In this document: positions 41,939 to 58,266 of the stretch, one piece after another
Layout: every line of letters begins with the position of its first letter
Position numbering within the stretch: the stretch's first letter is position 1
Source of the DNA: Thermoplasmatota archaeon
GTDB taxonomy: Archaea > Thermoplasmatota > Thermoplasmata > Halarchaeoplasmatales > Halarchaeoplasmataceae
Reading direction: 5' to 3'
Length of the DNA stretch: 62,348 bases
NCBI GenBank assembly: GCA_018334755.1
Contig: JAGXLI010000004.1
Location: forward strand, 1-62,348
Notes under the pieces: model-generated
The model's database searches: none
What the model was told of the DNA's origin: nothing
Seen by the model: only the letters and a program-made list of their open reading frames with translations
Position numbers and translations under genes: made by a program

Positions 41939-42017
41939 GCGGTTATCCTGTAGATGAAAAACTACATATAAAACCATAATACTTAAGTGGTATACTGCAA
42001 TATTGGAGTTGATACAT

Positions 42018-42311: not shown

Positions 42312-42346
42312 AACCTTTTATTTCCCATTATCAGGAGATAATCAAA

Positions 42347-42691
42347 ATGTGCTCACAGAATAATGGACGCTGCGACAAGCCAAAAGAAAGAGCCGAAAAA
42401 CGTATCAGTAAGCTTCAAGGTCTAGCCAAGGCGCTGCACTGTCCTACCAGGTGGGATATAATCGAAATCATAGGAACCGGCACGGCCAAAACCAAAGAGA
42501 TCAAGAAAGGAATGAAAGAGAAAGGCTATGATATCACTCAATCCGGTCTATATTATCACCTGTCGGAACTTCGAGAAGCGGGCATAATCGAAGTAGATAA
42601 ATTTCTAGAAGAGGGGCAAGGAGCACCTGAGAAGGTCTGGAAACTATCAAAGAAAAAGATAGAGATAGAGCTGGTGGTTGAGGAGGAATAG
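42347..42691 (+). CDS. ArsR-like winged-helix transcription regulator
   Basis: KALHCPTRWDII..SGLYYHLSELREAGII..GAPEKVW. Confidence 0.85.
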   Translation: MCSQNNGRCDKPKERAEKRISKLQGLAKALHCPTRWDIIEIIGTGTAKTKEIKKGMKEKGYDITQSGLYYHLSELREAGIIEVDKFLEEGQGAPEKVWKLSKKKIEIELVVEEE

Positions 42692-42695
42692 ATGG

Positions 42696-43619
42696 ATGAC
42701 GGTAGCTGTCGAGGCTAGTGACCTTAGTAAGACTTTCGGTGATGTTGAAGCGGTAAAAGACGTTAGTTTCAAGGTAGGAAAAGGAGAGTTCTTTGGCTTC
42801 TTAGGCCCCAATGGAGCGGGGAAGACCACCACCATAAGGATGCTCACCGGATTGATAACTCCGGATTCTGGAAAGGCATTGATAGATGGTATTGATCCCC
42901 AGAAAGATCCGATTCATGCAAAGATGAAAATGGGTATCATACCTGAGTTCGGCAATATCTATGTGGACTTGACTGCGAAGGAGAATCTGCATCTGGCAGG
43001 AAAATTCTACGGGATGTCGAAGAAGGAAAGGGAAAAAAGGGCCTCTGAACTATTACAGATATTGAAATTGAAGGGGCGGGAGAACGACGCAGTAAGAAAC
43101 TTTTCCAAGGGCATGAAACAGAGGGTCAATATAGGATGCGCTATAATACACGAACCGCCGGTTCTTTTCCTTGACGAACCCACCTCTGGTCTAGATGTGC
43201 AGAGTAAAAGGCTGGTTGTAGATATCGTAACTGAGATGAAAGAGAAAGGGAGCACAATATTTTTGACTACCCATAACATACAGGAGGCGAACGAACTCTG
43301 TGAACGTGTGGGTATCATCCATGAAGGAGATCTAGTCGCTATAGACAGTCCGGAAAGATTGAGGAATACATTCGATAAAACACAATCGATCGAGGTCTCT
43401 ATAGAAGGAGAATTCGACATCGATATGCTTCACAACGATCATGTCAATAAGATAGAAAGGTCAGGAGATAAATTGACGATCTTCACCGACCATCCAGATG
43501 TCACCGTTAAAAGACTAGTGAAACTGACGGATGAGGAGGACTTAAAGATATTATCTTTGAGAACCCAAGGTCCAAGCCTCGAGGAAGCTTTTGTCAGGTT
43601 AACAGGTGATAACGAATGA
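42696..43619 (+). CDS. ABC transporter ATP-binding protein (DrrA-like)
   Basis: GPNGAGKTT, FSKGMKQR, LFLDEPTSGLD, TTH, PSLEEAF. Confidence 0.93.
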   Translation: MTVAVEASDLSKTFGDVEAVKDVSFKVGKGEFFGFLGPNGAGKTTTIRMLTGLITPDSGKALIDGIDPQKDPIHAKMKMGIIPEFGNIYVDLTAKENLHLAGKFYGMSKKEREKRASELLQILKLKGRENDAVRNFSKGMKQRVNIGCAIIHEPPVLFLDEPTSGLDVQSKRLVVDIVTEMKEKGSTIFLTTHNIQEANELCERVGIIHEGDLVAIDSPERLRNTFDKTQSIEVSIEGEFDIDMLHNDHVNKIERSGDKLTIFTDHPDVTVKRLVKLTDEEDLKILSLRTQGPSLEEAFVRLTGDNE

Positions 43620-44362
43620 GATATTCAGAATTCTTAAGAGGTGTGATCACTACTGCTGAAAAAGACGTAAAGATTTACTACAAAAAGCCGCCGGTGATCA
43701 TATTCGGTCTTTTGTTTCCATTTCTGATGTTCCTAGCTTTCTATATAGGCAGGAAAGTGGAATTGAGTCTTTTCTTCCCGGGATTTTTGGCGATGACGCT
43801 GTTTTTCACTTCTTCCTCGGTAGGTCCGCTGGTGACACCGTGGGAGAGGCAGGCAGGTACATACGAAAGACTACTATCATATCCGGTCAACATCAAAGCG
43901 GTATTGATGGGAGATATACTTGCGGGTTCAGTCTTTGGTATAGCGATCTCAAGTGTTGTCCTCGTAGGTAGTTTATTTTTCATAAACATGCAGATCGTTA
44001 ATGTCGGTATGTTGTTAGCTTCGATATTAATGGGAGCCGTAGCTTTCTCATCGCTTGGAGTGCTTATCTCTGCACCAGCGACCACTTCGCCTTCATCGAT
44101 AATGATGCTCTCCAGCCTGATCAGATTTCCACTGATATTCATAAGCGGTATTTTCATTCCGCTCTCGCAGATGAAAGGCGTCATTAAATACATGTCTTAC
44201 ATATCTCCCTTGACCTATCTTGTAGATTCATTCCATTCAGGAATCGGTGGAAAAAATGTTCTACCCACGGGTATCGGAATACTAGCACTATTGATCTTCA
44301 GTGGATTGTTCCTTTTACTAGCCATAAAGATACACAAAAGGAATATGGTGAAGGGACTCTGA
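43616..44362 (+). CDS. ABC-2 type permease
   Basis: Six TM segments; ERQAGTYERLL.YP, ISGIFIP, SPLTYLVD. Confidence 0.9.
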   Translation: MRYSEFLRGVITTAEKDVKIYYKKPPVIIFGLLFPFLMFLAFYIGRKVELSLFFPGFLAMTLFFTSSSVGPLVTPWERQAGTYERLLSYPVNIKAVLMGDILAGSVFGIAISSVVLVGSLFFINMQIVNVGMLLASILMGAVAFSSLGVLISAPATTSPSSIMMLSSLIRFPLIFISGIFIPLSQMKGVIKYMSYISPLTYLVDSFHSGIGGKNVLPTGIGILALLIFSGLFLLLAIKIHKRNMVKGL

Positions 44363-44372
44363 GGTGAAAGAT

Positions 44373-44654
44373 TTATCCAAAGTAGTTTCGGTACTCTGAG
44401 ATTATAGCATCTTTGTACTCTTTTTCCTTTTCAGGAGGTATATAATTATCTTCTTTGAAGCTCTCTATCAATTCGTCTTCGTCGACTTCATCGGGCGCTA
44501 TCTCTTTCTCTTCTAACTCCTCGAAGATCTTTTTCATGCCTCTGATCCCAACTGTCTTTCCATCGATATTTACGATAGTAACGTCACTTGAACCCGAACA
44601 GGCGCAACCTTTACGAGTTTTCTTCAGCCCAAAAGGAGTTTCTTTATCGCCCAT
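44373..44654 (-). CDS. Small conserved hypothetical protein with N-terminal CxC
   Basis: KGCACSG..IDGKTVGIRG..NYIP..Y; starts immediately after the phosphoesterase stop. Confidence 0.65.
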   Translation of the reverse strand: MGDKETPFGLKKTRKGCACSGSSDVTIVNIDGKTVGIRGMKKIFEELEEKEIAPDEVDEDELIESFKEDNYIPPEKEKEYKDAIISEYRNYFG

Positions 44655-45329
44655 CTATACCACCTTACCTGCTCTCAAGATCCTAATGGCTCTTTCAGGG
44701 TAATCTTTTTCTCGCATCTTTTCAATAACCGTTTCGATATCGTATTTTAACCGTTCAAATGTGATCTCATCATCCTCTAACACTGCATATGCTGCTCTAG
44801 TGTCACCGTCTCTAGGTTGTCCTAAACTACCTGGATTGATGTATCTTTTGCCGTCGATTTCTCTATCCATGGGGATATGGGTATGCCCAAGAAGAACTAT
44901 ATCCTGATCTAAATCTTTGAATCCTTCAAACTCGTCCTCTGATGTATCCGGCTTTAGGTACTTGTAGAGATCATCTTTTGAAGCATGAGTCAAAAAATAC
45001 TTCTCCGTAGATTCAGTCATTGGTAGTTCACGAAGGTAATCTTTAGATTCCTCGGATATATCTTCAACTGTTATCTTCCTCACTTCCTGAGATAAGTCCT
45101 TTATCTCGTAGCCACAGCCGCAGTCTACACCGAACGCCGCGGCGTTATCGTGGTTCCCTCTAACTACAAGATCGGCCTTTTTCTTGATCAGCTCGACACA
45201 TTTTTGATTCGATGGACCGTAATCAACGATATCGCCCATACAGTATATCTTATCCCAATTTTCTTCTCTAAGAACTCCTTTCAACGCTTCGTAGTTCCCG
45301 TGTATATCAGATATAAGCAGTGTTTTCAT
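44655..45329 (-). CDS. Calcineurin-like metallophosphoesterase with extra CGC motif (intact motifs)
   Basis: SDIHGN, GDIVDYG, RGNHD, THAS, GHTH, NPGSLGQPRDG; DCGCG. Confidence 0.9.
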   Translation of the reverse strand: MKTLLISDIHGNYEALKGVLREENWDKIYCMGDIVDYGPSNQKCVELIKKKADLVVRGNHDNAAAFGVDCGCGYEIKDLSQEVRKITVEDISEESKDYLRELPMTESTEKYFLTHASKDDLYKYLKPDTSEDEFEGFKDLDQDIVLLGHTHIPMDREIDGKRYINPGSLGQPRDGDTRAAYAVLEDDEITFERLKYDIETVIEKMREKDYPERAIRILRAGKVV

Positions 45330-45357
45330 CTTAGATACCTCTCAATAATGATCGCTT

Positions 45358-46392
45358 TCAGAAATACTTTCTGGTCCGTTTGGCTATAGCCACAAGAGTC
45401 AACATAACCGGTACTTCAACTAGGACTCCAACCACTGTCGCCAATACGGCCCCGGATGCCATCCCAAATACTGAAATAGCAACCGCTACAGCTAGCTCGA
45501 AGAAATTGCTGGCTCCGATCTCAGCAGCAGGGGCCGCAACATCATGGGGTATCCCCCAAAGATAGGCCATACCGTATGCTATGGAAAATATCGTGAAAGT
45601 GAAGATCGTCAGTGGGATCGCGATCAGCAATATGTGCTCCGGATTACTGACGATGATGTCCCCCTGGAATGAGAACAGGAGTATCAGTGTCAGTAGTAAC
45701 CCCGGGATGGTCAGATCTCCGACCTTTTCTAAAAAGACTTCGTTGTACCAATCTTCGCCTTTTTTATCTATCAGATAGACTCTAGAAAAGGATCCCACGA
45801 CCAAAGGAACACCAACGTAAAGTCCCACGGACATTATCAAAGTGTCGTAAGGAACAGTTATCCCTCCTATGCCCAAAAGGAACGTGACAAGAGGTACATA
45901 GGCGAATAGGAGTATGATATTATTAGTCGATACCTGAACTAAAGTGTAAGCGGGATCGCCGTCTGAAAGATAGCTCCATACGAATACCATGGCTGTGCAG
46001 GGAGCCGCCCCTAGCAAAACGGCCCCAGCGATATATTGATCTTGTAACTCAGTTGAAATAAAACCGCTGAATATCACCTTCATGAATAAATAGATCAATC
46101 CGTACATCACGAAGGGTTTTATCACCCAATTAGAGGTCCAGGTGACGAAGAGTCCTCTAGGTTTTTCTTTGACTCCTAGGATACTTTTGAAATCTATCTC
46201 TGCCATCGCAGGATATATCATGAACCAGATCAAGATGGCTATCGGGATGTTCACGTTCGCATATTCGAATTCGCCTAGAGTCTCAGGAACAAAAGAGATA
46301 TACCTACCTATAGCCACTCCGATGATGATACATGCTGCGACCCATACCGTTAGATACTTTTCGAAAAAACTTAATCCTTGCTCCTCTGCCAT
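45358..46392 (-). CDS. acr3: ACR3-family arsenite efflux transporter
   Basis: FFEKYLTVWV, MIYP, NWVIKPF, APCTAMVFVW, GASNFFELAVAVA, GVLVEVPVML. Confidence 0.96.
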   Translation of the reverse strand: MAEEQGLSFFEKYLTVWVAACIIIGVAIGRYISFVPETLGEFEYANVNIPIAILIWFMIYPAMAEIDFKSILGVKEKPRGLFVTWTSNWVIKPFVMYGLIYLFMKVIFSGFISTELQDQYIAGAVLLGAAPCTAMVFVWSYLSDGDPAYTLVQVSTNNIILLFAYVPLVTFLLGIGGITVPYDTLIMSVGLYVGVPLVVGSFSRVYLIDKKGEDWYNEVFLEKVGDLTIPGLLLTLILLFSFQGDIIVSNPEHILLIAIPLTIFTFTIFSIAYGMAYLWGIPHDVAAPAAEIGASNFFELAVAVAISVFGMASGAVLATVVGVLVEVPVMLTLVAIAKRTRKYF

Positions 46393-46394
46393 AT

Positions 46395-46670
46395 TTAACA
46401 CCTCTCTTCCAATTTATCTCCCAACTCTTTTCCTTTCTCTAATATCTCGAGTATTTCGGACGCCGAAACCTTGTAGTAGATACGTTTTCCTTCTCGTCTT
46501 TTTTCGATGAGAGCGCAGTCTAACATATCTTTAAGATGATGACTCGTAAGAGACTGCTCGAGGTCTAAACATTCCGCGATCTCGTTAACACATTTTTCCT
46601 CCTCCCCTATGCAATAGAGTATCTTTCTGCGGTTGGTGTTGCTCAAACACTTGTATAAACGATCATTCAT
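46395..46670 (-). CDS. arsR: ArsR/SmtB-family repressor
   Basis: LSNTNRRKIL..KCVNEIAECL..QSLTSHHL..REGKRIYY; directly upstream of acr3. Confidence 0.9.
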   Translation of the reverse strand: MNDRLYKCLSNTNRRKILYCIGEEEKCVNEIAECLDLEQSLTSHHLKDMLDCALIEKRREGKRIYYKVSASEILEILEKGKELGDKLEERC

Positions 46671-46688
46671 ATGAATAAATAATCATAT
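46665..46688. promoter_or_regulatory. Putative ArsR operator overlapping the arsR start
   Basis: attcatatgaat palindrome overlapping atatga-N8-tcatat. Confidence 0.5.
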
Positions 46689-46757
46689 ATTATTAAAAAA
46701 TCTTTTGGTTCTTTTTTTCGTAAAGTATATTAGTTTTAAAATGCCTTTTTCATCTAA

Positions 46758-47093
46758 ATGCCACTAGAAATTGAGATCCCGGATGAAGTAGAACGAGACC
46801 TAGAACAAGGAGGGGGGATAGCAGAACTTCTGAAGAAGATAAAAGATGAGAAGATCGAGGAACAGAGCCAGATATATAAAGCTCTCTCCAACGAGGTCCG
46901 ATTGAAGATACTGACTCTTCTAGATGAACAGGAACTCTGTGTCTGTCTCTTGAAAGAGCTGTTGGATATCGCTGACTCGAAGTTATCTTACCATCTATCT
47001 ATTTTGAAAGACGTCGGAATGATAGAAGGAGAACGACAGGCCAATTTTGTGATCTATCGTATTACAGAAAAGGGCGAGAGATTTGCACTGTAA
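46758..47093 (+). CDS. arsR: ArsR-family repressor with ELCVC metalloid site
   Basis: KALSNEVRLKIL..ELCVCLL..SKLSYHLSILK. Confidence 0.9.
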   Translation: MPLEIEIPDEVERDLEQGGGIAELLKKIKDEKIEEQSQIYKALSNEVRLKILTLLDEQELCVCLLKELLDIADSKLSYHLSILKDVGMIEGERQANFVIYRITEKGERFAL

Positions 47094-47097
47094 CTTT

Positions 47098-47403
47098 TTA
47101 AAGATCTTCCTCTAACTCTATTTCTATTTTCTTGGATATTTTTTCTTTAGATGGGACTTCGTCCGATGCGACCTTATCACCGCTCACATAAGCGGAGGGG
47201 ACCTTTCTTTGTTTGCCGTCTGGATCGTTCTGATAGCCCTCGGTAGGTTCCACTCGCATCTGGGATCCTGCGTAGTATACATCCAATCTCAATCTATTCG
47301 GATATTTTTCAACGAAATCTTCCATCATATCGATCAATTTATTACATTTAGAAGTGGGAGGTGAGGCCACTAGAAGTTCGATCCTCAATTCATCATCAGT
47401 CAT
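47098..47403 (-). CDS. Thioredoxin-fold-like small protein, single Cys
   Basis: IELLVASPPTSKC (beta1-loop-helix), KVPS cis-Pro-like loop, VSGDKV..VPS; overlaps the ligase stop. Confidence 0.55.
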   Translation of the reverse strand: MTDDELRIELLVASPPTSKCNKLIDMMEDFVEKYPNRLRLDVYYAGSQMRVEPTEGYQNDPDGKQRKVPSAYVSGDKVASDEVPSKEKISKKIEIELEEDL

Positions 47404-48436
47404 GTCTTTTCACCATCCTCTCTACCAATTTTTTAAGATCTCTCTTGAGATGTTCTTCGAGTGCTGAATTATCTATGATATGTAAAGAACTGGTATAAGA
47501 AGTGTCGGATAGAGCATCTATCACCCGATCCAGTTCATCTTGCTCCGATACTATAAAGTCACCCTTTATGGATACTTCTTTAATAACCTCTCCTTCGATA
47601 TCGGCAGAAAGAACGATGACACCTCCTTTTCCCTTAGTAGACACCGTCGCTGACCTCGACTGCTGTTCCTGGTATGTCCAGCTTTCCAATGAATACTTGT
47701 TTTGATAGAGTTCTTCTACCTCCTCCTTCTCTCTATCAGATAGTTCCACTTCTTTCAGATCGATCTCTAAGATAGAAGAGATATGATCCGCTAAAATTTC
47801 CATGACCTCTTCAACTCTTACGGGATGATCGATCAATTCGCTTAAATTCACCACTCTGTTTTTAACACTATTTACATCCTTATCTTCGAATTTCATTTTG
47901 TTGGGTGTAAGAGTGCGGTCTAGATCGTTCTTATCTACATCTACCAAAAATGTTCCGCTGTGGACCATACTCGAGTACCATTCGATCTGTGCTGACCCGT
48001 ATATCTTTTTTCCGTTGACTACGACATCATTAATTCCGCTTATCTCCGCATCTACATCGAATTCATCTAAGGTTTTAATCACTGCATCACCCAATAACCG
48101 ATACAGATCGGATGCTTCTTCGATCGCCAGTTTTGAGAAAAGCTTTTTCTTTCTGAAAAATAGGGAGTAGCAGAAGGTCCCTTCGTCCTGATACACAGCA
48201 CCACCTGGATTCGGTCTTCGGATAACTGGAATATCATTTTCATCACAATATTTTAGATCCACCGCTTCATTCGGGTCCTGATAGATACCTATAAAAACCG
48301 ACGGCTCGACTCTTCTCAACCTCAACGTATCTGGACTCTTATCTTCATCGATACTCCTTAGGAGTGTTTCCTCCACTGCGAAATGCTTCTTTGGTTCCCG
48401 GATGTCATCCTCTAGCAACCTCCAATCTTCAGCCAT
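47396..48436 (-). CDS. Lipoate--protein ligase family protein (LplA-like, with C-terminal domain)
   Basis: WRLL, IGIYQ, RRPNPGGAVYQD, GIND, KKIYGSAQ, HSGTFL, KY..W, I.GDF. Confidence 0.88.
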   Translation of the reverse strand: MAEDWRLLEDDIREPKKHFAVEETLLRSIDEDKSPDTLRLRRVEPSVFIGIYQDPNEAVDLKYCDENDIPVIRRPNPGGAVYQDEGTFCYSLFFRKKKLFSKLAIEEASDLYRLLGDAVIKTLDEFDVDAEISGINDVVVNGKKIYGSAQIEWYSSMVHSGTFLVDVDKNDLDRTLTPNKMKFEDKDVNSVKNRVVNLSELIDHPVRVEEVMEILADHISSILEIDLKEVELSDREKEEVEELYQNKYSLESWTYQEQQSRSATVSTKGKGGVIVLSADIEGEVIKEVSIKGDFIVSEQDELDRVIDALSDTSYTSSLHIIDNSALEEHLKRDLKKLVERMVKRHD

Positions 48437-49112
48437 AATAGATACACCTTTCTTCTTTACAGCCCTCTATATCTCCGGCAAACGGACATTTAAAATCTTC
48501 AATATCATCGAGATCATATTCTTCCTTCAATATGGATATAGCCTGTTCGATCGAGGCATATACACTCTGCTTACAGCATCGCGGACCGCCCATCTCAGCT
48601 ATGGCCTTCAGAGAGTTAGAGGTCGTTCTTAAAGCTAAACTTCTCTCCTCACCTGATCTAAAAGAAGCACCGGTTATCAGTGATACAGCCACACCGGCTG
48701 ATTCACATGCCCCACAAGCGCCCCTGCTTCCACAGGCTCCGTACGGGATGTCTTCAAGCCGTTTCATAGCTGTTTTTATCTTCTTTGAAGAAACATCTAT
48801 ACCTGAATTTCTACAGATCGTTAAAATAACTGGAGCGACCAACAGATGATGTTCTATCCCGTGGGCGTTGAAGGAAGAATGCTTCATTATGAGGGGAGCT
48901 AGTTCGATCGGCTCCGTTCCATCGTAATTTTTACAAGTCCTTTCTATTATCTCTTTAGGACCGGCCAATCTGCACTCTTCACACCGAAAATGACCGTTCG
49001 GACAGATGTAGTCAGCTTCCTCTTTCTCTCCACAGAACATACATTCAGCCTTACCTTCGTGCTTTTCCAAGATCTCGCCACATATGGGGCATGGGAAGCT
49101 TCTCTCAGCCAT
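48429..49112 (-). CDS. Cys-rich DUF5714-like protein
   Basis: CPICG..CMFCG..CPNGHFRCEEC, HGIEHH, GACG..GACG, GGPRCCK, C..ERC. Confidence 0.75.
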   Translation of the reverse strand: MAERSFPCPICGEILEKHEGKAECMFCGEKEEADYICPNGHFRCEECRLAGPKEIIERTCKNYDGTEPIELAPLIMKHSSFNAHGIEHHLLVAPVILTICRNSGIDVSSKKIKTAMKRLEDIPYGACGSRGACGACESAGVAVSLITGASFRSGEERSLALRTTSNSLKAIAEMGGPRCCKQSVYASIEQAISILKEEYDLDDIEDFKCPFAGDIEGCKEERCIYYG

Positions 49113-49875
49113 GTTTACTTTCCTCAGATGGTTGACTATATTCTTTCTTTAGCTTCTTATATGCATTTTTTTCCCTAGAATTTGGTACCGCCTTTTTCGA
49201 TAGATGATCGATGTTATCACTTATCGCCTCAAGGTCTTTAAAAGGAAACCCGAGCACGCTTTCATCGGATTCTATATCTGTTGCGTCTCTACATCCATAA
49301 CATCCATAGCTCAAGTTCATCTTCTGTTCCTTATATGGGATTATCGTTGCATCAACACATGTAGCCTGTAGGATGGCAGTGGAACTTTCCACCCGCTCAC
49401 CACCTTTTGCATTGAGATATGCTAATGAGATCCACATCAAATTTTCCAGCTCACCTTCTATGACTACAACATCCGGTTCAAAGTCAGCTTCTTCCAATGG
49501 AAAAAGATGTATCTCTTGTATTTCACCAAGGTCGAATGTTGTCATCCCTTTGAACATCTCTTTTCCTGTATCTTCTCGCTGTACTATCCCGAACTTAACT
49601 AATCCTTTACCAGATTTCAAACCATCCGGAAGAGGCTTAAACCCGAATGCCCTAGCGGCAGCAGGACAGGCGATACCGTCTCCATCTAATAATACATGCT
49701 CGCCATGTCTTGCTCTCATCAACGCCTGGCAGTATCTATGACCATCTACTCTTTTCACTTTGTCCGATACCTCTTCCCTCTCATCGAATACAAATTTGAC
49801 TCCGACCGGATATGTTTCTAGTCCGATATTTTCTTTAATCGTTTTTGCGTTTTCCCTTATATTCGATGATCTCAT
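49105..49875 (-). CDS. DUF169-family protein
   Basis: PVGVKF, RYCQA, IACPAA..FG, PDVVV, ATCVD, SYGCYGCR. Confidence 0.8.
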   Translation of the reverse strand: MRSSNIRENAKTIKENIGLETYPVGVKFVFDEREEVSDKVKRVDGHRYCQALMRARHGEHVLLDGDGIACPAAARAFGFKPLPDGLKSGKGLVKFGIVQREDTGKEMFKGMTTFDLGEIQEIHLFPLEEADFEPDVVVIEGELENLMWISLAYLNAKGGERVESSTAILQATCVDATIIPYKEQKMNLSYGCYGCRDATDIESDESVLGFPFKDLEAISDNIDHLSKKAVPNSREKNAYKKLKKEYSQPSEESKHG

Positions 49876-49974
49876 GATTTCCCAACTCTCTTTATCTAGA
49901 CATCATAGATTCTAACCCAGGATGAATTTAATCATTAAAGAGATCGAGATTTAGAGTGTGTCTGAAAGGTGCTA

Positions 49975-50211
49975 TTACTCTTTCAACAGTTTTTTTATCT
50001 GGTCTGGATTCAATACTTTTCCGGTAGCTTTGGTTTCACCGTCGATCGCTATACCGGGAGTCGACATGACACCTCTCGCGCTTATCTCCTCCAGGTCCTG
50101 GACCTCTTCGATCTCCGCATCCATCCCGAGTTCGTCTACTGCTTTCTTTGCGTTTTTCTCCAATCTTTGGCATTTTGCACATCCGGTTCCCAATATCTCT
50201 ATCTTTTTCAT
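49975..50211 (-). CDS. Small redox-active disulfide protein (MTH895/ArsE-type thioredoxin)
   Basis: IEILGTGCAKC..GVMSTPGIAIDG..GKV. Confidence 0.92.
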   Translation of the reverse strand: MKKIEILGTGCAKCQRLEKNAKKAVDELGMDAEIEEVQDLEEISARGVMSTPGIAIDGETKATGKVLNPDQIKKLLKE

Positions 50212-50233
50212 ATATATCCACCTCTAAATTTCT

Positions 50234-50599
50234 TTACTCTTTTTGAAGTTTATCAACTAAATTTTCAATATCATCTATGATCTTATCCAATTTTTCTTCG
50301 CTTCTAAGATCACCGGTCTTTTCTATATCGTATCTCTCTGTAATAACTATCTCCTCATTCACCGGTATCTCAGCACTCTTTAAAGCTTTAGTCGCACACC
50401 GAACTTTACAGCCGTTCAAGGCAATATATTCATCGCTACTTTTACCGTTCTTTATTATCCCCTCTATACCCAGTGGTAACCCAAGAGCGCAGACAAAATC
50501 CGTGTTCTCTTTTTCTTTCATTGTGTTCACTACAGCCTTGTTCGACAACGCTCCAACGTTACAGGCCCCTGAACAGGGCAATATTCCTATTTTTTTCAT
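50234..50599 (-). CDS. DGC-domain putative metal-binding protein
   Basis: PCSGACNVG, VCA, LNGCKVRCA (NGC variant of DGC). Confidence 0.85.
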   Translation of the reverse strand: MKKIGILPCSGACNVGALSNKAVVNTMKEKENTDFVCALGLPLGIEGIIKNGKSSDEYIALNGCKVRCATKALKSAEIPVNEEIVITERYDIEKTGDLRSEEKLDKIIDDIENLVDKLQKE

Positions 50600-50621
50600 G
50601 TTTTTTACCTCCGTTTATATC

Positions 50622-51689
50622 TTATCCAACTATCATTCCGTACGTGAATCCCATCAAGGTTGAAAGTACCACAACGATCGCGATATAGGCGAGCCAATGC
50701 TTTAATTTCATGATCCTGAAAAGGACTATCATATTGGGTAAACTCAGAGAAGGACCAGCAAGTAACAAACTCAAGGCTGGAGCATCTCCCATGACTCCAG
50801 AATTGTAACCGAAAGTTTCGCCGATTATCGGCACTTCTAGAAGAGTAGGCATGTAAAGTATAGCTCCTATGATAGAACCGAAGAAAGATGATAACAAGCT
50901 GTTATCTCCCAGATAAGGTCTGAATGTTTCTGGAGGCAAAAAGTAAGCTATCACACCCACTATGAAAGTACCTGCGATCAGTATCGGAAATATCTTTTTG
51001 GTCAGATCCCAAGTTTCGTATCCCCATTCCGTAACTTCACTTGTCTCATAATAATAGATCATTATGACCGCGATAGCCATGGAGAACAAATAGATGATAC
51101 CTATCTTGAGGGCCCAGGAGATACCGGCTGTTCCCACAATCAATATGGCTATCAATAAAATAAAAACACTCAACTTGATCCATTTTGACCTTTTAGGACC
51201 GTTATCGTTAAGAGAGGTATTCTTGTTATTTTTGCTGGTCTCTTCATCGTGAGTTTTGAATAGATTGGACATCACAAAAGCTATGACGAAAGCCATGGCA
51301 ACCGCAGCTATCGCCCTTGCCAATCCTAGTTCGTATCCCAACATGTTAGCGGTGTAAACTATAGCCAAGATATTGACGGCAGGTCCAGAATACAAGAACG
51401 CAGTCGCCGGCCCTACGCCGCTCCCCTTTTTATACAACCCCGCGAACATCGGAAGGATCGTACAGCTGCAGACGGCTAGGACAGCTCCCGAAACAGATGC
51501 GATGGGATATGATATAGTCTTCTTCACGTCCGGTCCGAGATATTTCAGTATAGCGTCCTTTTTGATGAAGGCTGAGATGGCCCCTGCTATGAAGAAGGCA
51601 GGTACTAAACAGGTGAGCACATGTTCTGACAGGTAGGTGTATACGTTCACTAGTCCGCTCATCAAAACCGCATAGAGTATATCCCACAT
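50622..51689 (-). CDS. arsP: ArsP-like permease (DUF318)
   Basis: EHVLTCLVPAFFIAG, LAVCSCTILP, FLYSGPA.N, MPTLLEVP, LLAGPSLSLP. Confidence 0.88.
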   Translation of the reverse strand: MWDILYAVLMSGLVNVYTYLSEHVLTCLVPAFFIAGAISAFIKKDAILKYLGPDVKKTISYPIASVSGAVLAVCSCTILPMFAGLYKKGSGVGPATAFLYSGPAVNILAIVYTANMLGYELGLARAIAAVAMAFVIAFVMSNLFKTHDEETSKNNKNTSLNDNGPKRSKWIKLSVFILLIAILIVGTAGISWALKIGIIYLFSMAIAVIMIYYYETSEVTEWGYETWDLTKKIFPILIAGTFIVGVIAYFLPPETFRPYLGDNSLLSSFFGSIIGAILYMPTLLEVPIIGETFGYNSGVMGDAPALSLLLAGPSLSLPNMIVLFRIMKLKHWLAYIAIVVVLSTLMGFTYGMIVG

Positions 51690-51701
51690 GGTTTAAGCCC
51701 C

Positions 51702-51772
51702 ATTTCAACTTTGTTTAAAATAGCATAACCATAGGTGGTTAATAAGGGTTACGGTTTCAAACTTATTTGAAA
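51702..51772. promoter_or_regulatory. Two related palindromic operator sites upstream of arsP
   Basis: tttcaaa-ctta-tttgaaa (51755-51772) and imperfect atttcaactttgtttaaaat (51702-51721). Confidence 0.55.
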
Positions 51773-51872
51773 TGGGTTATTCACATGTAGACAGATTTCG
51801 GAGCATCCGAAAGAATCATTAGACGCTCCAAGTGTTCATAACATGCTTATAAGATTGGAAGGTGTCACTATA

Positions 51873-52550
51873 ATGAAAATCCTACTCGTATATGATATAC
51901 ACGGGAACTACCAGGCTTTAAAAGAGGTCCTTGCCGAAGAGGACTACGACCGGCTCTACTGCATGGGCGATATCGTGGATTACGGGGCCTCGCCAGAAGA
52001 GTGCGTGACGGAGATGATAGATAAGGCGGATATAGTGATACGTGAAAATCACGATGACGCCGTCACTACCGGAGCAGACTGCGGGTGCAGTTATGAGATC
52101 AAAGATCTTTCTGAAGAGGTGAGAAGTATAACCAAAGAACTTTTGAGTGAAAATTCTATGGGATATCTGAACGAATTGCCTTTTGAAGAAAAAGAAGGCG
52201 ATATCTTTTCCACTCACGCATCCAAAGGAGACCTTTACAAATACCTAAAACCAGATACTCCTGAAAAGAAATTTACTGATTTCTCTGACGTAGATCAAGA
52301 TATCATCATTTTAGGCCGCACACATATACCGATGGACAGAACCATCGACGGTAAGAGACTTTTGAACCCGGGAAGTCTAGGCCAGCCTAGGGACGGAGAT
52401 CCAAGAGCTAGTTATGCTGTTTTTGAGGATGGGGAAGTAAAATTCAAGAGAAAAACATATGATATAGAAAAAGCCAAGAGAAGACTAGATGAGAAAGGAT
52501 TTCCGGAACGTACGAAACGGATATTGGATGCGGGAAAGGTCGTTCCATGA
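51873..52550 (+). CDS. Second CGC-motif metallophosphoesterase paralog with degenerate motifs
   Basis: Colinear with 44655-45329; YDIHGN, RENHD (vs RGNHD), GRTH (vs GHTH), DCGCS kept. Confidence 0.85.
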   Translation: MKILLVYDIHGNYQALKEVLAEEDYDRLYCMGDIVDYGASPEECVTEMIDKADIVIRENHDDAVTTGADCGCSYEIKDLSEEVRSITKELLSENSMGYLNELPFEEKEGDIFSTHASKGDLYKYLKPDTPEKKFTDFSDVDQDIIILGRTHIPMDRTIDGKRLLNPGSLGQPRDGDPRASYAVFEDGEVKFKRKTYDIEKAKRRLDEKGFPERTKRILDAGKVVP

Positions 52551-52576
52551 AAGATTTGATAGGGCGATGATTTGAC

Positions 52577-52918
52577 CTACTTCACCATCGTCAGGAACAT
52601 CTTGAATTTTTCTACGGCTTCCACTGCATGAGGCACGTCAGCGGGCATTACTATCGTTTCTCCGCGCTGCAGTTCGTACTCTTCGCCTTCTATTATCACT
52701 TTTCCGGTCCCTTCCAAGACCTGCAGCAGCGCTTTATGGGGCGATGTATGTTCACTTAAAGTCTGTTCCTCGTCGAAAGCGAAAAGTGTCAGCGTTACTG
52801 TCTCCTTATCGACCAAAGTACGACTCACCACCGATCCTGATTGATATCCAACAAGATCTTCCAGTTCCAATACATCCCCAGTAAGCTCGTCCAGTTGATC
52901 TCTATCTTTTTCTATCAT
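52577..52918 (-). CDS. Cupin domain protein
   Basis: SVVSRTL, LFAFD..LSEHTSP, QVLEG, MPADVPHAV. Confidence 0.9.
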   Translation of the reverse strand: MIEKDRDQLDELTGDVLELEDLVGYQSGSVVSRTLVDKETVTLTLFAFDEEQTLSEHTSPHKALLQVLEGTGKVIIEGEEYELQRGETIVMPADVPHAVEAVEKFKMFLTMVK

Positions 52919-52989
52919 CCTATCTCCTCTCGTTGAAAAAAGGTTCTAGGAAAAAGGTTTTTCGTCTTTCTCTTTTCTCTAGTCCCTGT

Positions 52990-53493
52990 TTAACAACACG
53001 AAGTAGTAGGTCCACAGCAGCTCGAGGTCTGTTCCTCTTCCTCACAGCAGGTTTCCTTTGTTTCCTTTTCCATCCCGACTTCTTTCCTTACAGCTTCTTT
53101 TATCATCTCTTTCGGGATAGTTTCATAGGTCTCTCCTTCATACTCGAAGACCCTGCAGTCGTTGCCTCCGCCAGTTATCTCGTAACATTCGGGACCCGTA
53201 ACGTCTTCACAGGAAGGACAGTAACTATCCTTCACCTCGTAATCTTCGTTCACTATCCCCTCTATATCGGTACCGTTTATCCTCAATGTAGGGGAACGGA
53301 TCAGACCGTGCTTCTTTGCCTGCTCATCACTCCTTATCTTTCTCTTGTTAACGGTTATCGAATCGATGTTGTTTTGATGTATCTGATCTCTCAGTTCTCT
53401 CAAAGCTCTATCTAACGTCTCATCGCTGGAGAGACACCTTTCACATTCCGAGAGGTCCACGTAAAGAAAATCTATCGATAAGTCATCCGGCAT
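52990..53493 (-). CDS. DUF2703-like thioredoxin-fold protein with Cys-pair tail
   Basis: IDFLYVDLSECERC, SPTLRING.DI, CPSC..DCRVFEYEG, tail CC..CC..CC. Confidence 0.75.
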   Translation of the reverse strand: MPDDLSIDFLYVDLSECERCLSSDETLDRALRELRDQIHQNNIDSITVNKRKIRSDEQAKKHGLIRSPTLRINGTDIEGIVNEDYEVKDSYCPSCEDVTGPECYEITGGGNDCRVFEYEGETYETIPKEMIKEAVRKEVGMEKETKETCCEEEEQTSSCCGPTTSCC

Positions 53494-53503
53494 ATTATCA
53501 GTT

Positions 53504-53731
53504 TCAGTGCGATTTTATATGCTCTATCTTCTCTTCTACTGCGTTCAGTTCCTTTTCCAGTTCCTTTTTGTAGGACTCTAACTCGTCTATCTTCTCTTGT
53601 TTGGTTCTGAAATTTCTCCATCCGCCGTGTCCACAGCAGCAGCCACCTTTCTTTCCATGACCCTTCTTGTGACTACCATGATGACCTTTTCCTTTACGTC
53701 CGTGTCCGGTTCCACAGCATTCTCCACTCAT
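53504..53731 (-). CDS. Small His/Gly/Cys-rich protein with C-terminal coiled coil (DUF5320-like)
   Basis: ECCG..HHGSH..GCCCGHGG.R.F.TK.EK..ELE.YK.ELE. Confidence 0.7.
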   Translation of the reverse strand: MSGECCGTGHGRKGKGHHGSHKKGHGKKGGCCCGHGGWRNFRTKQEKIDELESYKKELEKELNAVEEKIEHIKSH

Positions 53732-54127: not shown

Positions 54128-54805
54128 TCATAATCTTAATTTACAATCTTCAAAATATTTTTCACTCCATCTCTCAAGCTTTTCTTCCGAATATGACCTT
54201 TCAGTGATCTTATCCGGATCTAAAACATCCTTTTTATGTTCGAACTGCTGTAAGATATATCTACTTTCTTTTCCCAACCATTCGGATATATCTCCGATAT
54301 CTTTTTCATCTAGCAATCCGGGTACGACAGTAGTTCTAAACTCGTAAGAAACATTGGACCCATGGACGATCTCTATAGACCTTTCTATTTTTTGGATATC
54401 AATTTCAGTTCCAACTAGAAGATCATACTTTCCTTTAGGTGCTTTTACATCGATAGCTATGTAATCTAACAGGTCTTTTTCCAATAACTTCGAGATCATC
54501 TCGGGTCTAGTCCCGTTCGTATCTATTTTTACTAGATAATCCATCTGTTTCACTTCCCTTAAAAAATCAATAAGACCTTCCTGTAACGTAGGCTCACCTC
54601 CCGAGATAGATACACCTTCAAGAAAATTTTTTCTCTCATCCAAAGTAGAGATGACCTCTTCCTCTTGAATCCTACTAGAACCATCTATCAAATTATGATT
54701 ATAACAAAAAGGGCATCTTAGATTACATCCGATAGTCCATACTACTGCGCTCAATTTATAAGGATAATCGATCAAGGAGAGCTTCTGAAACCCTCCAATC
54801 TTCAT
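54128..54805 (-). CDS. nrdG: Anaerobic ribonucleotide reductase activating protein (radical SAM)
   Basis: GFQKLSLIDYP, GCNLRCPFCYN, SGGEPT, KIDTNG, EFRTTV. Confidence 0.93.
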   Translation of the reverse strand: MKIGGFQKLSLIDYPYKLSAVVWTIGCNLRCPFCYNHNLIDGSSRIQEEEVISTLDERKNFLEGVSISGGEPTLQEGLIDFLREVKQMDYLVKIDTNGTRPEMISKLLEKDLLDYIAIDVKAPKGKYDLLVGTEIDIQKIERSIEIVHGSNVSYEFRTTVVPGLLDEKDIGDISEWLGKESRYILQQFEHKKDVLDPDKITERSYSEEKLERWSEKYFEDCKLRL

Positions 54806-56929
54806 TCAGCTCACCGCTTTCACTTCAAATGTTTCTCTGTCTTCGAATTCCTGTGTCTTACCCTCATTCCATTGGTTTACAGGCCTGAGATATCCTACTA
54901 CCCTAGAATATATCTCACATCTTTTCTTATCACCCTCTTCGCATTTTGGACAAAATTCATGTTTCCCGCTGATATAGCCGTGATCAGAGCAGATACTGAA
55001 AGTGGGAGTTATCGTATAATAAGGGATAGACGACACCTCCGATATCTTTTTGACCAATTTTTTAGTTGCTGTCGGGGAAGGCATACTCTCACCTATAAAT
55101 CCATGGAATACAGTTCCTCCGGTGTACTTGGTCTGGAGTGGTTCTTGAAGGTTCAATGCTTCGAAGAGATCTTCGGTGTACCCCACTGGTAGCTGAGATG
55201 AGTTGGTGTAATATGGCTTGATCTCTTTCTCCCCGTTCGATTTTATTTTATTGTGTATTTTTATATCGGGATATCTCTTTTCGTCCAATTTCGCTAACCT
55301 GTAACAGGTACTCTCGGCAGGTGTAGCTTCCAAATTGAAAAGATTTCCAGTCTTTTCCTGGTACTCTTTCAGTCTATCTCTCATATGAGATAAAACCTTC
55401 TCCGCAAACCTGATCCCTTCATTCGAGCCTATGTCTTCACCGAGAAGGTTCAAAACAGCGTCGTTCATACCGACTAGACCTATCGTCGAGAAATGATTCT
55501 TCCAAAATTCTCCAAATCTTTCCTGTACATCGGACAGATAGAATCTTGAATATGGATGGAGGCCTGTTTTAGTCAAGCTTTCGATAACCTCTCTTTTTAT
55601 CTCTAAGCTCTTCTTGGCCTTGTCCATCAAAGAATCCAACGTTTCTAAAAATTCCTCTTCATTTCTTGCTTTATACCCTATCCGTGGGAGATTTATCGTG
55701 ACCACTCCTATTGAACCCGTCTTTGGATTCGCTCCAAAAAGACCTCCTCCTCTTTTGTTTAGCTCTCGATTATCCAATCTCAAGCGGCAGCACATACTTC
55801 TAGAGTCCTCTGGATTCATCTCGCTGTTCACATAGTTTGAGAAATAAGGAATACCATAGTTTGCGGTCATCTCCCACAGAGGATCGTACCTTTCATCATC
55901 CCAATCAAAGTCCTCTGTAATGTTATAGGTCGGTATAGGAAAGGTGAATGGTCTCGAGTTATCGTCTCCCTCCTGCATCACCTCTGAAAATGCTCTATTT
56001 ATCATGATCATCTCCTCCCTAAATTCTCCGTAAGTTTCTTCTTTCAGATCACCACCTATTATCACCGGTTCATCTCTCATATGTTCTGGCGGATTAAGAT
56101 CCATGGTTATGTTCGTGAAGGGTGTCTGAAACCCTACACGGGTCGGGACGTTCATGTTGAAAAGGAACATCTGCATCTGCTGTTTTACCTCATCATAATC
56201 TAACCCGTCGTAATGAATGAAAGGAGCTAGAAGAGTATCAAAACTTGAGATCGCCTGGGCACCAGCAGCCTCACCCTGGAGAGTGTATAGAAAATTGACT
56301 ATCTGCATCATCGCCGCACTGAGGTGTTTAGGCGGCGAACTGGCGATCTTGCCTGATACTCCTCTAAATCCTTTCAGAAGTATATCCTTTAAATCCCATC
56401 CCACACAGTAAGGTCCAAGGGTCCCTAGATCATGAATGTGAAAATCTCCATCCATATGAGCATCTCTTATCTCTGGTGGGTAGATTTTATTCAACCAATA
56501 ATTTTCTATCACAGTCTCAGAGGTATAAACATTTAGACCCTGTAAAGAATAGCTCATATTGCTGTTCTCCTTCACCTTCCAGTCGGCCCTGTCTAGATAC
56601 TCATCCACCATCTCGATGTCTTCTAGAAGACCACCCACTTTCCTAATCTCCTCATGCTGTTTTCTATACAGGATGTATGCCTTCGCTAGTTTATATTCTC
56701 CGATCTCCATCAGTGTTTCTTCTACCAAGTCTTGAACTTTTTCGACGCTCGGCATATCTGCATATCCTGTTTCTTCCTCCAATTTTTTAACTACTCTCTC
56801 CGTTACTTCCTGTGCCAGCTCTAGGTCCTTGTTACCAACAGCCGATGAGGCTTCCCACACCGCATTCGTGATCCTGACTGGATTGAAATCTACTACTTCA
56901 CCATCTCTTTTTCTGATTTTCCTGATCAT
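54806..56929 (-). CDS. nrdD: Class III (anaerobic) ribonucleoside-triphosphate reductase with ATP cone
   Basis: IRKRDG ATP cone, HIHDL, PFTFPIPT, SMCCRL, EATPAES, YTGGTVFH, YSRVVGY glycyl-radical motif. Confidence 0.96.
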   Translation of the reverse strand: MIRKIRKRDGEVVDFNPVRITNAVWEASSAVGNKDLELAQEVTERVVKKLEEETGYADMPSVEKVQDLVEETLMEIGEYKLAKAYILYRKQHEEIRKVGGLLEDIEMVDEYLDRADWKVKENSNMSYSLQGLNVYTSETVIENYWLNKIYPPEIRDAHMDGDFHIHDLGTLGPYCVGWDLKDILLKGFRGVSGKIASSPPKHLSAAMMQIVNFLYTLQGEAAGAQAISSFDTLLAPFIHYDGLDYDEVKQQMQMFLFNMNVPTRVGFQTPFTNITMDLNPPEHMRDEPVIIGGDLKEETYGEFREEMIMINRAFSEVMQEGDDNSRPFTFPIPTYNITEDFDWDDERYDPLWEMTANYGIPYFSNYVNSEMNPEDSRSMCCRLRLDNRELNKRGGGLFGANPKTGSIGVVTINLPRIGYKARNEEEFLETLDSLMDKAKKSLEIKREVIESLTKTGLHPYSRFYLSDVQERFGEFWKNHFSTIGLVGMNDAVLNLLGEDIGSNEGIRFAEKVLSHMRDRLKEYQEKTGNLFNLEATPAESTCYRLAKLDEKRYPDIKIHNKIKSNGEKEIKPYYTNSSQLPVGYTEDLFEALNLQEPLQTKYTGGTVFHGFIGESMPSPTATKKLVKKISEVSSIPYYTITPTFSICSDHGYISGKHEFCPKCEEGDKKRCEIYSRVVGYLRPVNQWNEGKTQEFEDRETFEVKAVS

Positions 56930-57448: not shown

Positions 57449-57458
57449 ATTTTACACC

Positions 57459-58265: not shown

Positions 58266-58266
58266 C

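Follow-up and report, generated by a model that had tools for sequence, protein, structure and literature searches.

A Conserved Gene Trio with a Lipoate-Protein Ligase Paralogue beside Arsenic Genes in a Thermoplasmatota Archaeon: A Candidate Lipoyl-Dithiol Accessory System

Introduction

As(III) ties up dihydrolipoyl groups, and lipoic acid is the classic cofactor target of arsenite. In the ArsD-ArsA system, a soluble Cys-rich protein takes As(III) to the efflux system. Here, we describe an island of 16 genes at positions 44373 to 53731 of a 62,348-nucleotide stretch of DNA from a Thermoplasmatota archaeon (GenBank assembly GCA_018334755.1, contig JAGXLI010000004.1, forward strand), the whole of which we call the window. 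The island encodes the pumps Acr3 and ArsP with two ArsR-family sensors, and next to them a paralogue of the lipoate-protein ligase LplA, accompanied by a DUF5714 protein and a thioredoxin-like protein of 101 residues (TrxL101). As a tentative reading, to which we give somewhat less than an even chance, we suggest that this trio, together with a DGC-domain protein and an ArsE-type thioredoxin (Trx3), makes up a lipoyl-dithiol accessory system, which would most likely capture arsenicals and hand them over to ArsP or Acr3.

The likeness to ArsD-ArsA lies in this proposed mode of working. There is no sequence relation and both proteins are absent here; moreover, the pumps of the island are secondary carriers, and the proposed ligand arm is a cofactor and not only a set of Cys side chains. 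With canonical ars operons, the island shares a CVC-type ArsR, an Acr3 that scores above its family cut-off, and the ArsP motifs (C(S/T)C and the N-terminal motif of cluster 1). It differs from them in that the genome is without ArsC, ArsD, ArsA, and ArsM and in that eleven further genes are present, most of them Cys-rich and without an assigned function. Two permeases in one island, as here, are found in 24 of the 49 ArsP operons in the available text of a published survey (PMC4435449).

The operon arsR5-arsP-arsE(PF13192)-DGC(PF08859) of Pseudodesulfovibrio mercurii ND132 is reported, in the available part of a preprint, to be up-regulated in As-amended cells (bioRxiv 10.1101/2022.10.17.512643). 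It comprises the same four families as the core of our island (ArsR, ArsP, ArsE, and DGC) but, as presented there, neither DUF169 nor the ligase trio, and DGC is entered there without a known function. A dedicated ligase that serves a non-canonical lipoyl carrier has its nearest precedent, judging by the accessible portion of its description, in the sHdr-LbpA system, in which dedicated LplA-like ligases are encoded beside a non-canonical GcvH-like carrier whose arm is proposed to carry substrate between sites (PMC6067878). A second dedicated LplA-like ligase is the only feature that the two share. No Hdr-like or GcvH-like gene occurs among the 16 products of the island, its setting is arsenic and not sulfur oxidation, the partners of the ligase (DUF5714, the monothiol thioredoxin-like protein, and DGC) are different ones, and the carrier would act in trans here and is fused to DGC in other lineages. 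The selenocysteine-assisted organometallic (SAO) locus of Clostridioides difficile and other anaerobes, insofar as the available text sets it out, likewise combines a CSC-bearing exporter of the ArsP family with a small thioredoxin-like protein and with several proteins overloaded with Cys (bioRxiv 10.1101/2022.07.06.499078). We considered SAO membership and rejected it on the scores for SaoE (97.7 vs 325 bits) and SaoT (16.2 vs 65 bits); unlike SAO, the island has no MerB-like lyase (SaoL), ABC importer, or in-frame TGA among its 16 genes.

Although arsenic resistance is well charted, no role has been assigned to DGC, ArsE, DUF169, DUF5714, or DUF2703. They are tied to arsenic and lipoic acid by a conserved gene order, by three independent domain fusions, and by repeated placement next to CVC-type ArsR, Acr3, and ArsP.

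Results and Discussion

Conservation of the Trio and Its Arsenic Context

DUF5714, the ligase, and the monothiol (TSKC) thioredoxin-like protein, in that order, form a fixed unit. The order is kept in three genomes (the window, L011, and L061; G and L numbers are our handles for genomes and loci) and in 8 metagenome contigs. A metagenome scan with the alignment of the 101-residue protein gave 14 contigs, and all 8 of those with at least 1.7 kb upstream have the three genes in this order; 2 truncated contigs run from the ligase into the 101-aa gene, and the 4 contigs with fewer than 340 bases upstream were left out of the order count. Merging near-duplicates leaves 8 distinct contexts (the window, L011, L061, L081, L085, L086, L090, and L091). 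Acr3 or ArsP stands beside the trio in 5/8 of these, a CVC-type ArsR in 3/8, at least one of ArsR, Acr3, and ArsP in 6/8, and DGC also in 6/8. The closest relative, L011, a metagenome-assembled genome labelled uncultured Thermococci archaeon, reads arsP-DUF169-DGC-Trx3-DUF5714-ligase-101aa.

A scan of a collection of genome contigs with DUF5714 returned a single locus. Across the phylum, 44 of 401 sampled genomes encode DUF5714. Of 29 DUF5714 loci retrieved with ∼20 kb of sequence each, just one, G394 from another class, contains further genes of the cluster, in the row arsP-ArsR-(CMD)-DGC-Trx3-DUF169-DGC-DUF5714-ligase-101aa, which continues with DUF2703, a thioredoxin-like lipoprotein, Redoxin::DsbD, and Acr3. 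The 28 non-trio loci, whose DUF5714 proteins are 28–40% identical, serve as an internal control, and none of them (0/28) has Acr3, ArsP, DGC, Trx3, DUF169, or LplA. A previous annotation made from the letters of the DNA without database searches, which we call the sequence-only reading, had grouped DUF169, DUF5714, DGC, and LplA with the arsenic pumps; in agreement with this, the DUF genes sit with arsR, acr3, and arsP elsewhere too.

The genes of the arsenic pumps, their sensors, and the accessory proteins in the window are as follows:

45358 to 46401, minus strand: Acr3 arsenite efflux permease (TIGR00832, 370.5 bits; cut-off 282.8)
46395 to 46670, minus strand: ArsR/SmtB regulator 1 (ArsR1), with C-V-N and no CVC (NF033788, 80.0 bits; cut-off 55)
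46758 to 47093, plus strand: ArsR/SmtB regulator 2 (ArsR2), with the ELCVC metalloid site (NF033788, 76.5 bits; cut-off 55)
47098 to 47403, minus strand: TrxL101, monothiol thioredoxin-fold protein of 101 aa with PPTSKC for CxxC, third gene of the trio (from alignments)
47396 to 48436, minus strand: LplA-like lipoate-protein ligase paralogue, second gene of the trio (PF21948, 166.5 bits; TIGR00545, 225.9 bits, cut-off 280)
48429 to 49112, minus strand: DUF5714 Cys/His-rich protein with an N-terminal zinc-ribbon-like part, first gene of the trio (PF18978, 164.4 bits)
49105 to 49875, minus strand: DUF169 Cys-rich protein (PF02596, 194.4 bits)
49975 to 50211, minus strand: MTH895/ArsE-family thioredoxin-like protein (Trx3) with CAKC (TIGR00412, 99.6 bits; cut-off 62)
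50234 to 50599, minus strand: DGC-domain four-Cys protein (PF08859, 84.2 bits; cut-off 27)
50622 to 51689, minus strand: ArsP_1 permease of the cluster 1 type (PF03773, 248.4 bits; cut-off 32.3)

The DUF169, DUF5714, ligase, and 101-aa genes are joined successively by 8-base overlaps. The arsP, DGC, and Trx3 genes are spaced by 22 bases, and 99 bases separate Trx3 from DUF169.

The Ligase, TrxL101, and DUF5714

An alignment of the ligase with solved lipoate-protein ligases extends over 287 residues (8cri_A, E 2.4e-35), and both its adenylate motif RRxxxGGAVYQD (RRPNPGGAVYQD) and the Lys of KIYGSAQ (KxxGxAQ) align to 8cri_A. Residues R73, R74, G78, G79, V81, Y82, D84, and K144 are invariant in 29 relatives. 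The PF21948 match of 166.5 bits, the adenylate motif, and the catalytic Lys together mark an LplA-type catalytic domain. For the C-terminal accessory domain, PF10437 gives 19.7 bits vs 24 and the LplB model 23.2 vs 65, and the alignment to solved ligases runs on to residue 297–314. We file the protein, on its profile scores, as an LplA-family paralogue and not as a TIGR00545 equivalog. Homologues number 167 at E ≤ 1e-30, are 39–68% identical among the 120 listed, and come from many bacterial and archaeal phyla, all with generic annotation. The same genome also encodes GcvH (G000:C31, beside SHMT), GcvT, LipS2, and a housekeeping LplA of the archaeal large-subunit type, which is followed by the LipS2 lipoyl synthase and is 31% identical to the island ligase. 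Stand-alone GcvH is present in both other trio genomes as well (3/3 in total).

TrxL101 had been labelled thioredoxin-like, and the label stands in part. The protein has no Pfam match and no redox CxxC, which places it outside Thioredoxin_3 (PF13192) proper. On the other hand, it aligns to the neighbouring Thioredoxin_3, with CxxC replaced by a PPTSKC that is invariant in 10 homologues, and PF13192 is found in two of its homologues. Lys64 and Lys67, before the cis-Pro, are invariant too. The family is rare: a word-indexed search returned 8 clusters, and a HMMER search of 1.84 billion representatives gave 57 representative clusters at E ≤ 1e-3 and 26 at ≤ 1e-10. The idea that TrxL101 itself is the lipoyl acceptor, through the Lys of an 'SGDKVAS' hairpin, was dropped, the Lys not being conserved.

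DUF5714 has 17 Cys in all; its N-terminal part resembles a double zinc ribbon, and the motifs EHH, CGxxGxCG, and GGPRCC are invariant. Its structure model has a predicted local distance difference test (pLDDT) score of 93.2, and the best VIA match of this model is the [4Fe-4S]/[2Fe-2S] cysteine desulfidase CyuA (Z 6.6, root-mean-square deviation (rmsd) 4.8, 143 residues aligned; next row 4.9), a model-based likeness that we take as a lead to an Fe-S site and no more. LMWPc is the fold of the thioredoxin-coupled ArsC. A structure search with the product of window 48429–49112 also found an ESM Atlas cluster of 313 members (357 aa, Bacillota) in which DUF5714 is present in 100% and LMWPc in 98%.

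DGC, DUF169, and Domain Fusions

In the DGC protein, CxxxC occurs twice; C64 and C68 are invariant among 26 aligned sequences, at least 90% of which retain C9 and C37. The model (pLDDT 91) predicts a flavodoxin-like alpha/beta fold. Its best VIA match is a domain of 2-oxoglutarate:ferredoxin oxidoreductase (Z 8.8, rmsd 2.7, 98 aligned), tied with many alpha/beta folds, and a sequence search of solved structures gave no match for either DGC or DUF169. A link between DGC and lipoic acid comes from domain fusions. A search with the DGC::GcvH protein of L091 yielded 530 matches, and PF08859 and PF01597 are both present in 120/120 of those listed, from Asgard archaea, Bathyarchaeia, and Bacillota (Eubacterium callanderi, Acetobacterium, Dialister). 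The lipoyl Lys (ES.K) is retained in 15/15 of the aligned fusions. In L091, an operon divergent from an ArsR(CVC)-trio encodes a ferredoxin, DGC::GcvH, and two more DGC proteins.

The ligase and TrxL101 folds are also found in one chain: 12 long proteins (236–381 aa) match the TrxL101 profile C-terminally, with an LplA catalytic domain ahead of it in 11/12 and the Cys of PPTSxC kept in 11/12. These ligase-like::Trx-like fusions point to an old partnership of the two folds and do not establish the fused forms as active ligases.

DUF169 follows arsP-DGC-Trx3 in G022, G259, G256, G043, G198, G394, and L011. The family is a broad one (87/401 genomes), and its ars-linked members are a subset, because Trx3 or DGC lies within 1.5 kb in only 3 of the 29 best non-self loci. 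The G259 operon (L131) reads ArsR-ArsR-arsP-LMWPc-CMD-DGC-Trx3-Fer4::DUF169-unknown-Redoxin::DsbD. It includes an ArsC of the LMWPc type and a fusion of a 2×[4Fe-4S] ferredoxin to DUF169, and a Redoxin::DsbD membrane protein comes after (G259:C4, 8247–9179 and 10445–10849). In this case a classical ars operon contains both DUF169 and DGC, with DUF169 attached to a domain that carries electrons.

Pumps, Sensors, and Missing ars Genes

The arsenic label given to the core by the sequence-only reading is sound, with an Acr3 over the equivalog cut-off, the C(S/T)C motif in ArsP, and the CVC motif in ArsR. The Acr3 match spans positions 1–327 of the 327 in TIGR00832, which predicts arsenite efflux, and the protein is 82–95% identical in congeners. 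Of the Cys pairs in the two regulators, QELCVCLL in ArsR2 matches ELCVC, the ArsR Cys-pair site in the DNA-binding helix region, and EKCVNE in ArsR1 does not. The CVC of ArsR2 is common to the ArsRs that adjoin the trio in L061 and L091 and to congener ArsRs. ArsP carries LAV-CSC and HVLTCLVPAFFIAG, motifs described for ArsP in the available text of the survey cited above (PMC4435449). PF03773 also includes Cu/Zn exporters, and against the SO_0444 model of these the protein scores 97.3 bits vs a cut-off of 300; methyl-As(III) or trivalent aromatic arsenicals are its putative substrates. Trx3 passes the TIGR00412 cut-off and has CxxC in the form CAKC, its assignment to the ArsE family being based on the ND132 preprint and the NCBIfam name.

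The absence of ArsC, ArsM, ArsA, and ArsD, which had been noted for the island, holds for the whole assembly. Profile searches of all contigs returned 0 matches to ArsC of the LMWPc type, to ArsC of the Grx type (PF03960), and to ArsD. For ArsA, the assembly has no real match, the two scores being 34.2 bits over 72 positions and 18.3 bits over 117 positions of a 305-position profile, and the best score to ArsM (NF008823) in the assembly is 51.8 bits vs a cut-off of 263. With 112 contigs, the assembly is 93.22% complete, so that these absences are probable and not proven.

A 9-mer search of the ars promoters found no shared operator among them. A palindrome, TTTCAAA-ctta-TTTGAAA, lies at window 51757–51775 in the divergent promoter region of arsP and the second phosphoesterase gene, within a longer inverted repeat CCCATTTCAA ... 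TTGAAATGGG, and is a candidate operator. Two observations concern the pumps elsewhere. In G256 (L134, G256:C6, 3418–4726), a genome of another family (f34), Acr3 and ArsR1 are 90% and 82% identical to those of the window, and the pair fits a recent transfer, as judged from this identity. In L011, two adjacent half-size ArsP_1 open reading frames (ORFs; 160 and 178 aa) at 12838–13853 come after the trio and a PadR gene; both match only the first half of the profile and may represent a split or two-piece permease.

Mosaic Structure of the Island

The island is a mosaic and not one unit, as comparison with relatives makes plain (a DNA search of 25, and six congener loci fetched). A genus-wide core consists of arsP-DGC-ArsE(Trx3), a CVC-type ArsR, and arsR-acr3-phosphoesterase-CxC protein. 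In the congener loci, arsP-Trx3 is convergent with ArsR2 in 6/6, DGC lies between arsP and Trx3 in 3/6, and the arsP locus is contiguous with ArsR1-Acr3-phosphoesterase in 3/6. Window 47098–49875 is an extra block of DUF169, DUF5714, the LplA-like ligase, and the 101-aa protein, none of which occurs in the six congener loci. The DUF5714 profile has no match in 17/17 same-genus genomes or in 24 other genomes of the family, and among the DNA matches listed for 15 same-genus genomes none covers window 47109–49829. The trio was found only in this genome among the relatives searched. The set cupin-DUF2703-75aa has a 90%-identical counterpart in G010, where it is found on a separate contig (G010:C49); a 67%-identical copy of the Cupin_2 gene is located 4 kb from the trio in L011, and a DUF2703 homologue directly follows the trio in L061.

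The sequence-only reading had taken all of this for one arsenic system. Its interpretation is borne out in part: the co-occurrence with ars genes stands, and the single system dissolves into a genus-wide core, the separate DUF169-DUF5714-LplA-Trx-like block, and a cupin-DUF2703-75aa set that is found elsewhere in congeners. We likewise rejected the notion of one mobile island, in that parts lie on different congener contigs and only the four-gene block is missing.

In G001, the flanks of the block (window 49830–50050 and 47002–47108) are ∼50 bp apart, and the first of them retains the first 45 bases of DUF169. By its sequence, this junction looks like a deletion scar. DUF169 is probably old in this archaeal family, because G022 (same family, other genus) has arsP-DGC-Trx3, two small genes, and then a DUF169 that is 83% identical. 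A 172-base contig from a second-study run spans the ArsR2/101-aa junction without differences.

Proposed Function and Its Alternatives

The gene content, the conserved order, the domain fusions, and the arsenic context are direct observations, and they suggested to us a possible scheme. The CVC-type ArsR and the second ArsR would control the Acr3 pump and the ArsP permease with DGC and the ArsE-type thioredoxin. The four-gene block is joined to the 3′ end of the arsP operon, and its last three genes would mature or maintain a lipoyl (dithiol) arm: the ligase would lipoylate a GcvH-type carrier, which may be the stand-alone GcvH here and the DGC::GcvH fusion in other lineages, and the target of TrxL101 and the Cys/His-rich DUF5714 would be either the ligase itself or the dithiol end. 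As(III) or methyl-As(III) could then be bound by the dihydrolipoyl arm, working with ArsE and the four-Cys site of DGC, and be passed to ArsP or Acr3, and the lipoyl arm would thus be a metallochaperone in a genome without ArsD/ArsA. Lipoate as the substrate, the identity of the lipoylated protein, and the binding and transfer of arsenic are what we infer. The thiol relay of the sequence-only reading would be plausible. That reading missed the connection with lipoic acid that the dedicated ligase and the fusions of DGC to GcvH provide, which is the point that most constrains the mechanism.

Several results weigh against such a lipoyl-dithiol system for arsenic. No lipoyl carrier is present in cis in 7/8 contexts, the window included, so that the acceptor is assumed. 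All 7 of the trio ligases scanned (225.9 bits for that of the island, 197.8–218.1 bits for the other six) score below the LplA equivalog cut-off of 280 (TIGR00545), and their substrate could differ. The ligase domains of the long fusions are 21–30% identical, with the RRxxGGGxVxxD pattern in 1/12; so far diverged, they may not be active ligases. Two contexts are without ArsR, Acr3, and ArsP: L090 holds HlyD/ABC-2/OEP and cyclopropane synthase genes, and L081 two OsmC genes, rhodanese, FMN reductase, and chromate and CDF transporters, so that a wider thiol-stress or metal role fits as well. Congeners live with the arsenic core alone. The complex predicted for the ligase and TrxL101 scores weakly, with a median interaction score (ipSAE) of 0.38 (runs 0.04, 0.69, and 0.38; best of 3 controls 0.00); of the 157 solved complexes 116 reach the mark we used, and of the 215 mismatches 2 do; with a score of ≤0.60, only 18 of the 157 reach it, along with both passing mismatches. 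At least 53% of the contacts are common to the runs, and the partner pLDDT is at least 80. The best Foldseek match of DGC is lumazine synthase (E 2.7e-3, TM 0.33–0.40), which is not a convincing solved relative. For DUF5714, a sequence search of solved structures gave only a zinc ribbon at E 0.017, and the best Foldseek match has E 0.32, again no convincing solved relative. No RNA sample is listed as matching the window.

An unlikely alternative, to our mind, is that the block repairs damage and has no part in export: an ArsR-controlled second ligase with its thiol helpers would re-lipoylate GcvH or free poisoned arms, which would keep glycine cleavage running under arsenic stress. The housekeeping set looks complete (GcvH by SHMT, GcvT, the LplA large subunit, and LipS2), the other two trio genomes have an ordinary GcvH, and the rarity of a carrier in cis suits this explanation as well. 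It leaves unexplained the DGC::GcvH fusions (at least 120 clusters), the DGC::GcvH that stands beside ArsR and the trio, and the fusion of DUF5714 to an ArsC-type domain, and a housekeeping ligase is already at hand. Slightly less likely still is a lipoyl-driven reductase in place of ArsC, where the dihydrolipoyl arm would give two electrons and TrxL101 or DUF5714 provide the catalytic site, and where As(V) or pentavalent organoarsenicals would be turned into the trivalent forms exported by Acr3 and ArsP. Neither ArsC family was detected in the 93%-complete genome, TrxL101 has a single invariant Cys and, next to the cis-Pro loop, the likewise invariant Lys64 and Lys67, DUF5714 is fused elsewhere to the LMWPc arsenate-reductase fold, and Fer4::DUF169 and Redoxin::DsbD in related operons point to an electron supply. 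However, we found no residue pattern of a known arsenate reductase, congeners (whose ArsC content was not searched) are also without the block, and the related arsP-DGC-Trx3-DUF169 operon of G259 has an LMWPc ArsC, so that the module coexists with ArsC there, at a locus without the trio.

We consider it about equally improbable that the module is not specific to arsenic and is instead a general lipoyl/thiol redox device against peroxide, sulfur species, or soft metals that has landed in ars islands, which collect thiol-stress genes under ArsR/SmtB-type sensors. The L081 and L090 contexts argue for it, as does the fact that ArsR/SmtB proteins sense many ligands (NCBIfam shows weak matches to sulfite, Cd/Pb, and other sensors). 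The ArsRs adjacent to the trio nevertheless carry CVC in 3/3, Acr3 or ArsP is present in 5/8 contexts compared with 0/28 control loci, and DUF5714 is fused to an ArsC-type domain. That the four genes are no more than unrelated cargo behind an arsP operon seems very improbable. Congeners do without them, but across unrelated lineages, with a G+C of 30% to 49%, the trio recurs next to ars genes in varied arrangements, the 8-base overlaps tie the four genes together, and fusions link their families.

For the lipoyl-dithiol system that we favour, a sharper claim would be that of a cofactor-based metalloid chaperone or reductase of an undescribed kind, in which the classic target of arsenite is turned against it and the dihydrolipoyl arm, with the four-Cys DGC site, either takes up As(III) or methyl-As(III) for the two pumps or does the work of the missing ArsC on As(V); this we regard as rather doubtful, if less so than any of the alternatives above. 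Were it true that the lipoyl arm binds or reduces arsenicals, carbon metabolism and sHdr sulfur oxidation would be joined by a third, non-canonical use of lipoate, the way in which anaerobes without ArsC and ArsD handle arsenic would be accounted for, and four Pfam families of unknown function would acquire a testable role. In the literature, with most subscription journals outside our search, we found no description of a lipoate ligase, DUF5714, DUF169, or DGC::GcvH in arsenic resistance, and a search for 'DGC domain' with arsenic found only diguanylate cyclases. New here are a version that lacks a cis-encoded carrier, the fixed trio together with the fusions of its monothiol thioredoxin-like member, the recurrence of DUF169 as an addition in archaea, and close relatives with and without the block. 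The window is in this respect a natural experiment, in which close relatives share the ars core and differ in the block.

Remaining Genes and Neighbouring Features

The remaining six genes of the island are as follows:

44373 to 44654, minus strand: CxC protein of 93 aa (GCAC), last gene of the acr3 operon (ORF; no Pfam or NCBIfam match)
44655 to 45329, minus strand: YfcE-type metallophosphoesterase 1, with DCGCG after GNHD (PF12850, 84.9 bits; TIGR00040, 65.8 bits, cut-off 56.25)
51843 to 52550, plus strand: YfcE-like metallophosphoesterase 2 (DCGCS), divergent from arsP (PF12850, 61.0 bits)
52577 to 52918, minus strand: Cupin_2 protein (PF07883, 43.6 bits)
52990 to 53493, minus strand: DUF2703 protein with a Cys-rich tail (PF10865, 84.5 bits)
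53504 to 53731, minus strand: protein of 75 aa with a His/Gly/Cys-rich N-terminus and a coiled-coil tail (ORF; no family above cut-off)

The 16 ORFs fill 44373–53731, and their families are mostly those that the sequence-only reading had named (Pfam, NCBIfam). The two leftward operons, the second arsR, and the second phosphoesterase gene that it listed were all found, and its remark that most products carry Cys motifs is matched by CC, CxC, or CxxC in 11/16, read from the sequences. The term 'DUF5320-like' for the 75-aa protein did not hold up, there being no such Pfam family at E ≤ 0.01.

The two phosphoesterases are 64% identical to each other, and the divergent arsP/phosphoesterase-2 pair is also present in G011. 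The CxC after GNHD is kept in 26/29 phosphoesterase loci of the phylum. The enzyme had been counted as part of the arsenic system, but it belongs to a widespread CxC-bearing subfamily that outside its own archaeal family does not stand beside acr3. We rejected it as an ars-specific enzyme, given that it adjoins acr3 in 1/29 loci (G022, same family). A CxC phosphoesterase adjoins an ArsR-family gene, with no acr3, in 7/28 loci outside the family (L151, L155, L156, L157, L159, L162, and L166). Behind the phosphoesterase, the 93-aa CxC protein is conserved in the congeners G015 and G001 as well as in G022, another member of the family. Among the 3 contiguous congener loci, one has the CxC gene at full length, in one it is ended by the contig, and one has a copy (49%) ahead of arsP. 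The Atlas model of this protein (mean pLDDT 0.63) resembles domains fused to DGC, Fer4, and Trx3 clusters, which is a lead only.

The host had been taken for an anaerobic halophilic archaeon, and the data agree. The window encodes PolD DP2, Spt5-NGN, FEN1, and SRP54, and NrdD/NrdG and a hybrid-cluster protein are anaerobic markers. As regards salt, the island proteins are acidic, with a pI of 4.4–5.7 in 14/16, and the best-matching DNA sample, possibly the source sample, is labelled salt lake metagenome. A comparison of read depth placed arsP, DGC, and acr3 above the block, but it sums contigs of other organisms, and we drew no inference from it.

Several features lie outside the island. Window 41000–44362, with an ArsR-like helix-turn-helix and an ABC-transporter gene, has two more copies in the genome (G000:C85 and G000:C88; 84% and 80% DNA identity). 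A class II-type ribonucleotide reductase gene at window 15218–18598 contains an intein with a LAGLIDADG homing-endonuclease domain. A 56-aa ORF at window 53823–53993 matches only positions 19–57 of the 91-position HxlR profile and is probably a truncated regulator. Window 54128–56929 (NrdG and NrdD) has no same-genus DNA match, only matches of 63–65% in other families, and the pair looks separately inserted, because G010:C49 runs from cupin-DUF2703-75aa straight into window 57141 onward. On the minus strand of window 57134–58926 are genes for a cupin, a 271-aa ferredoxin-domain protein, and a 219-aa ArsR-family protein, after which come two hemerythrin genes and the gene for the hybrid-cluster protein.

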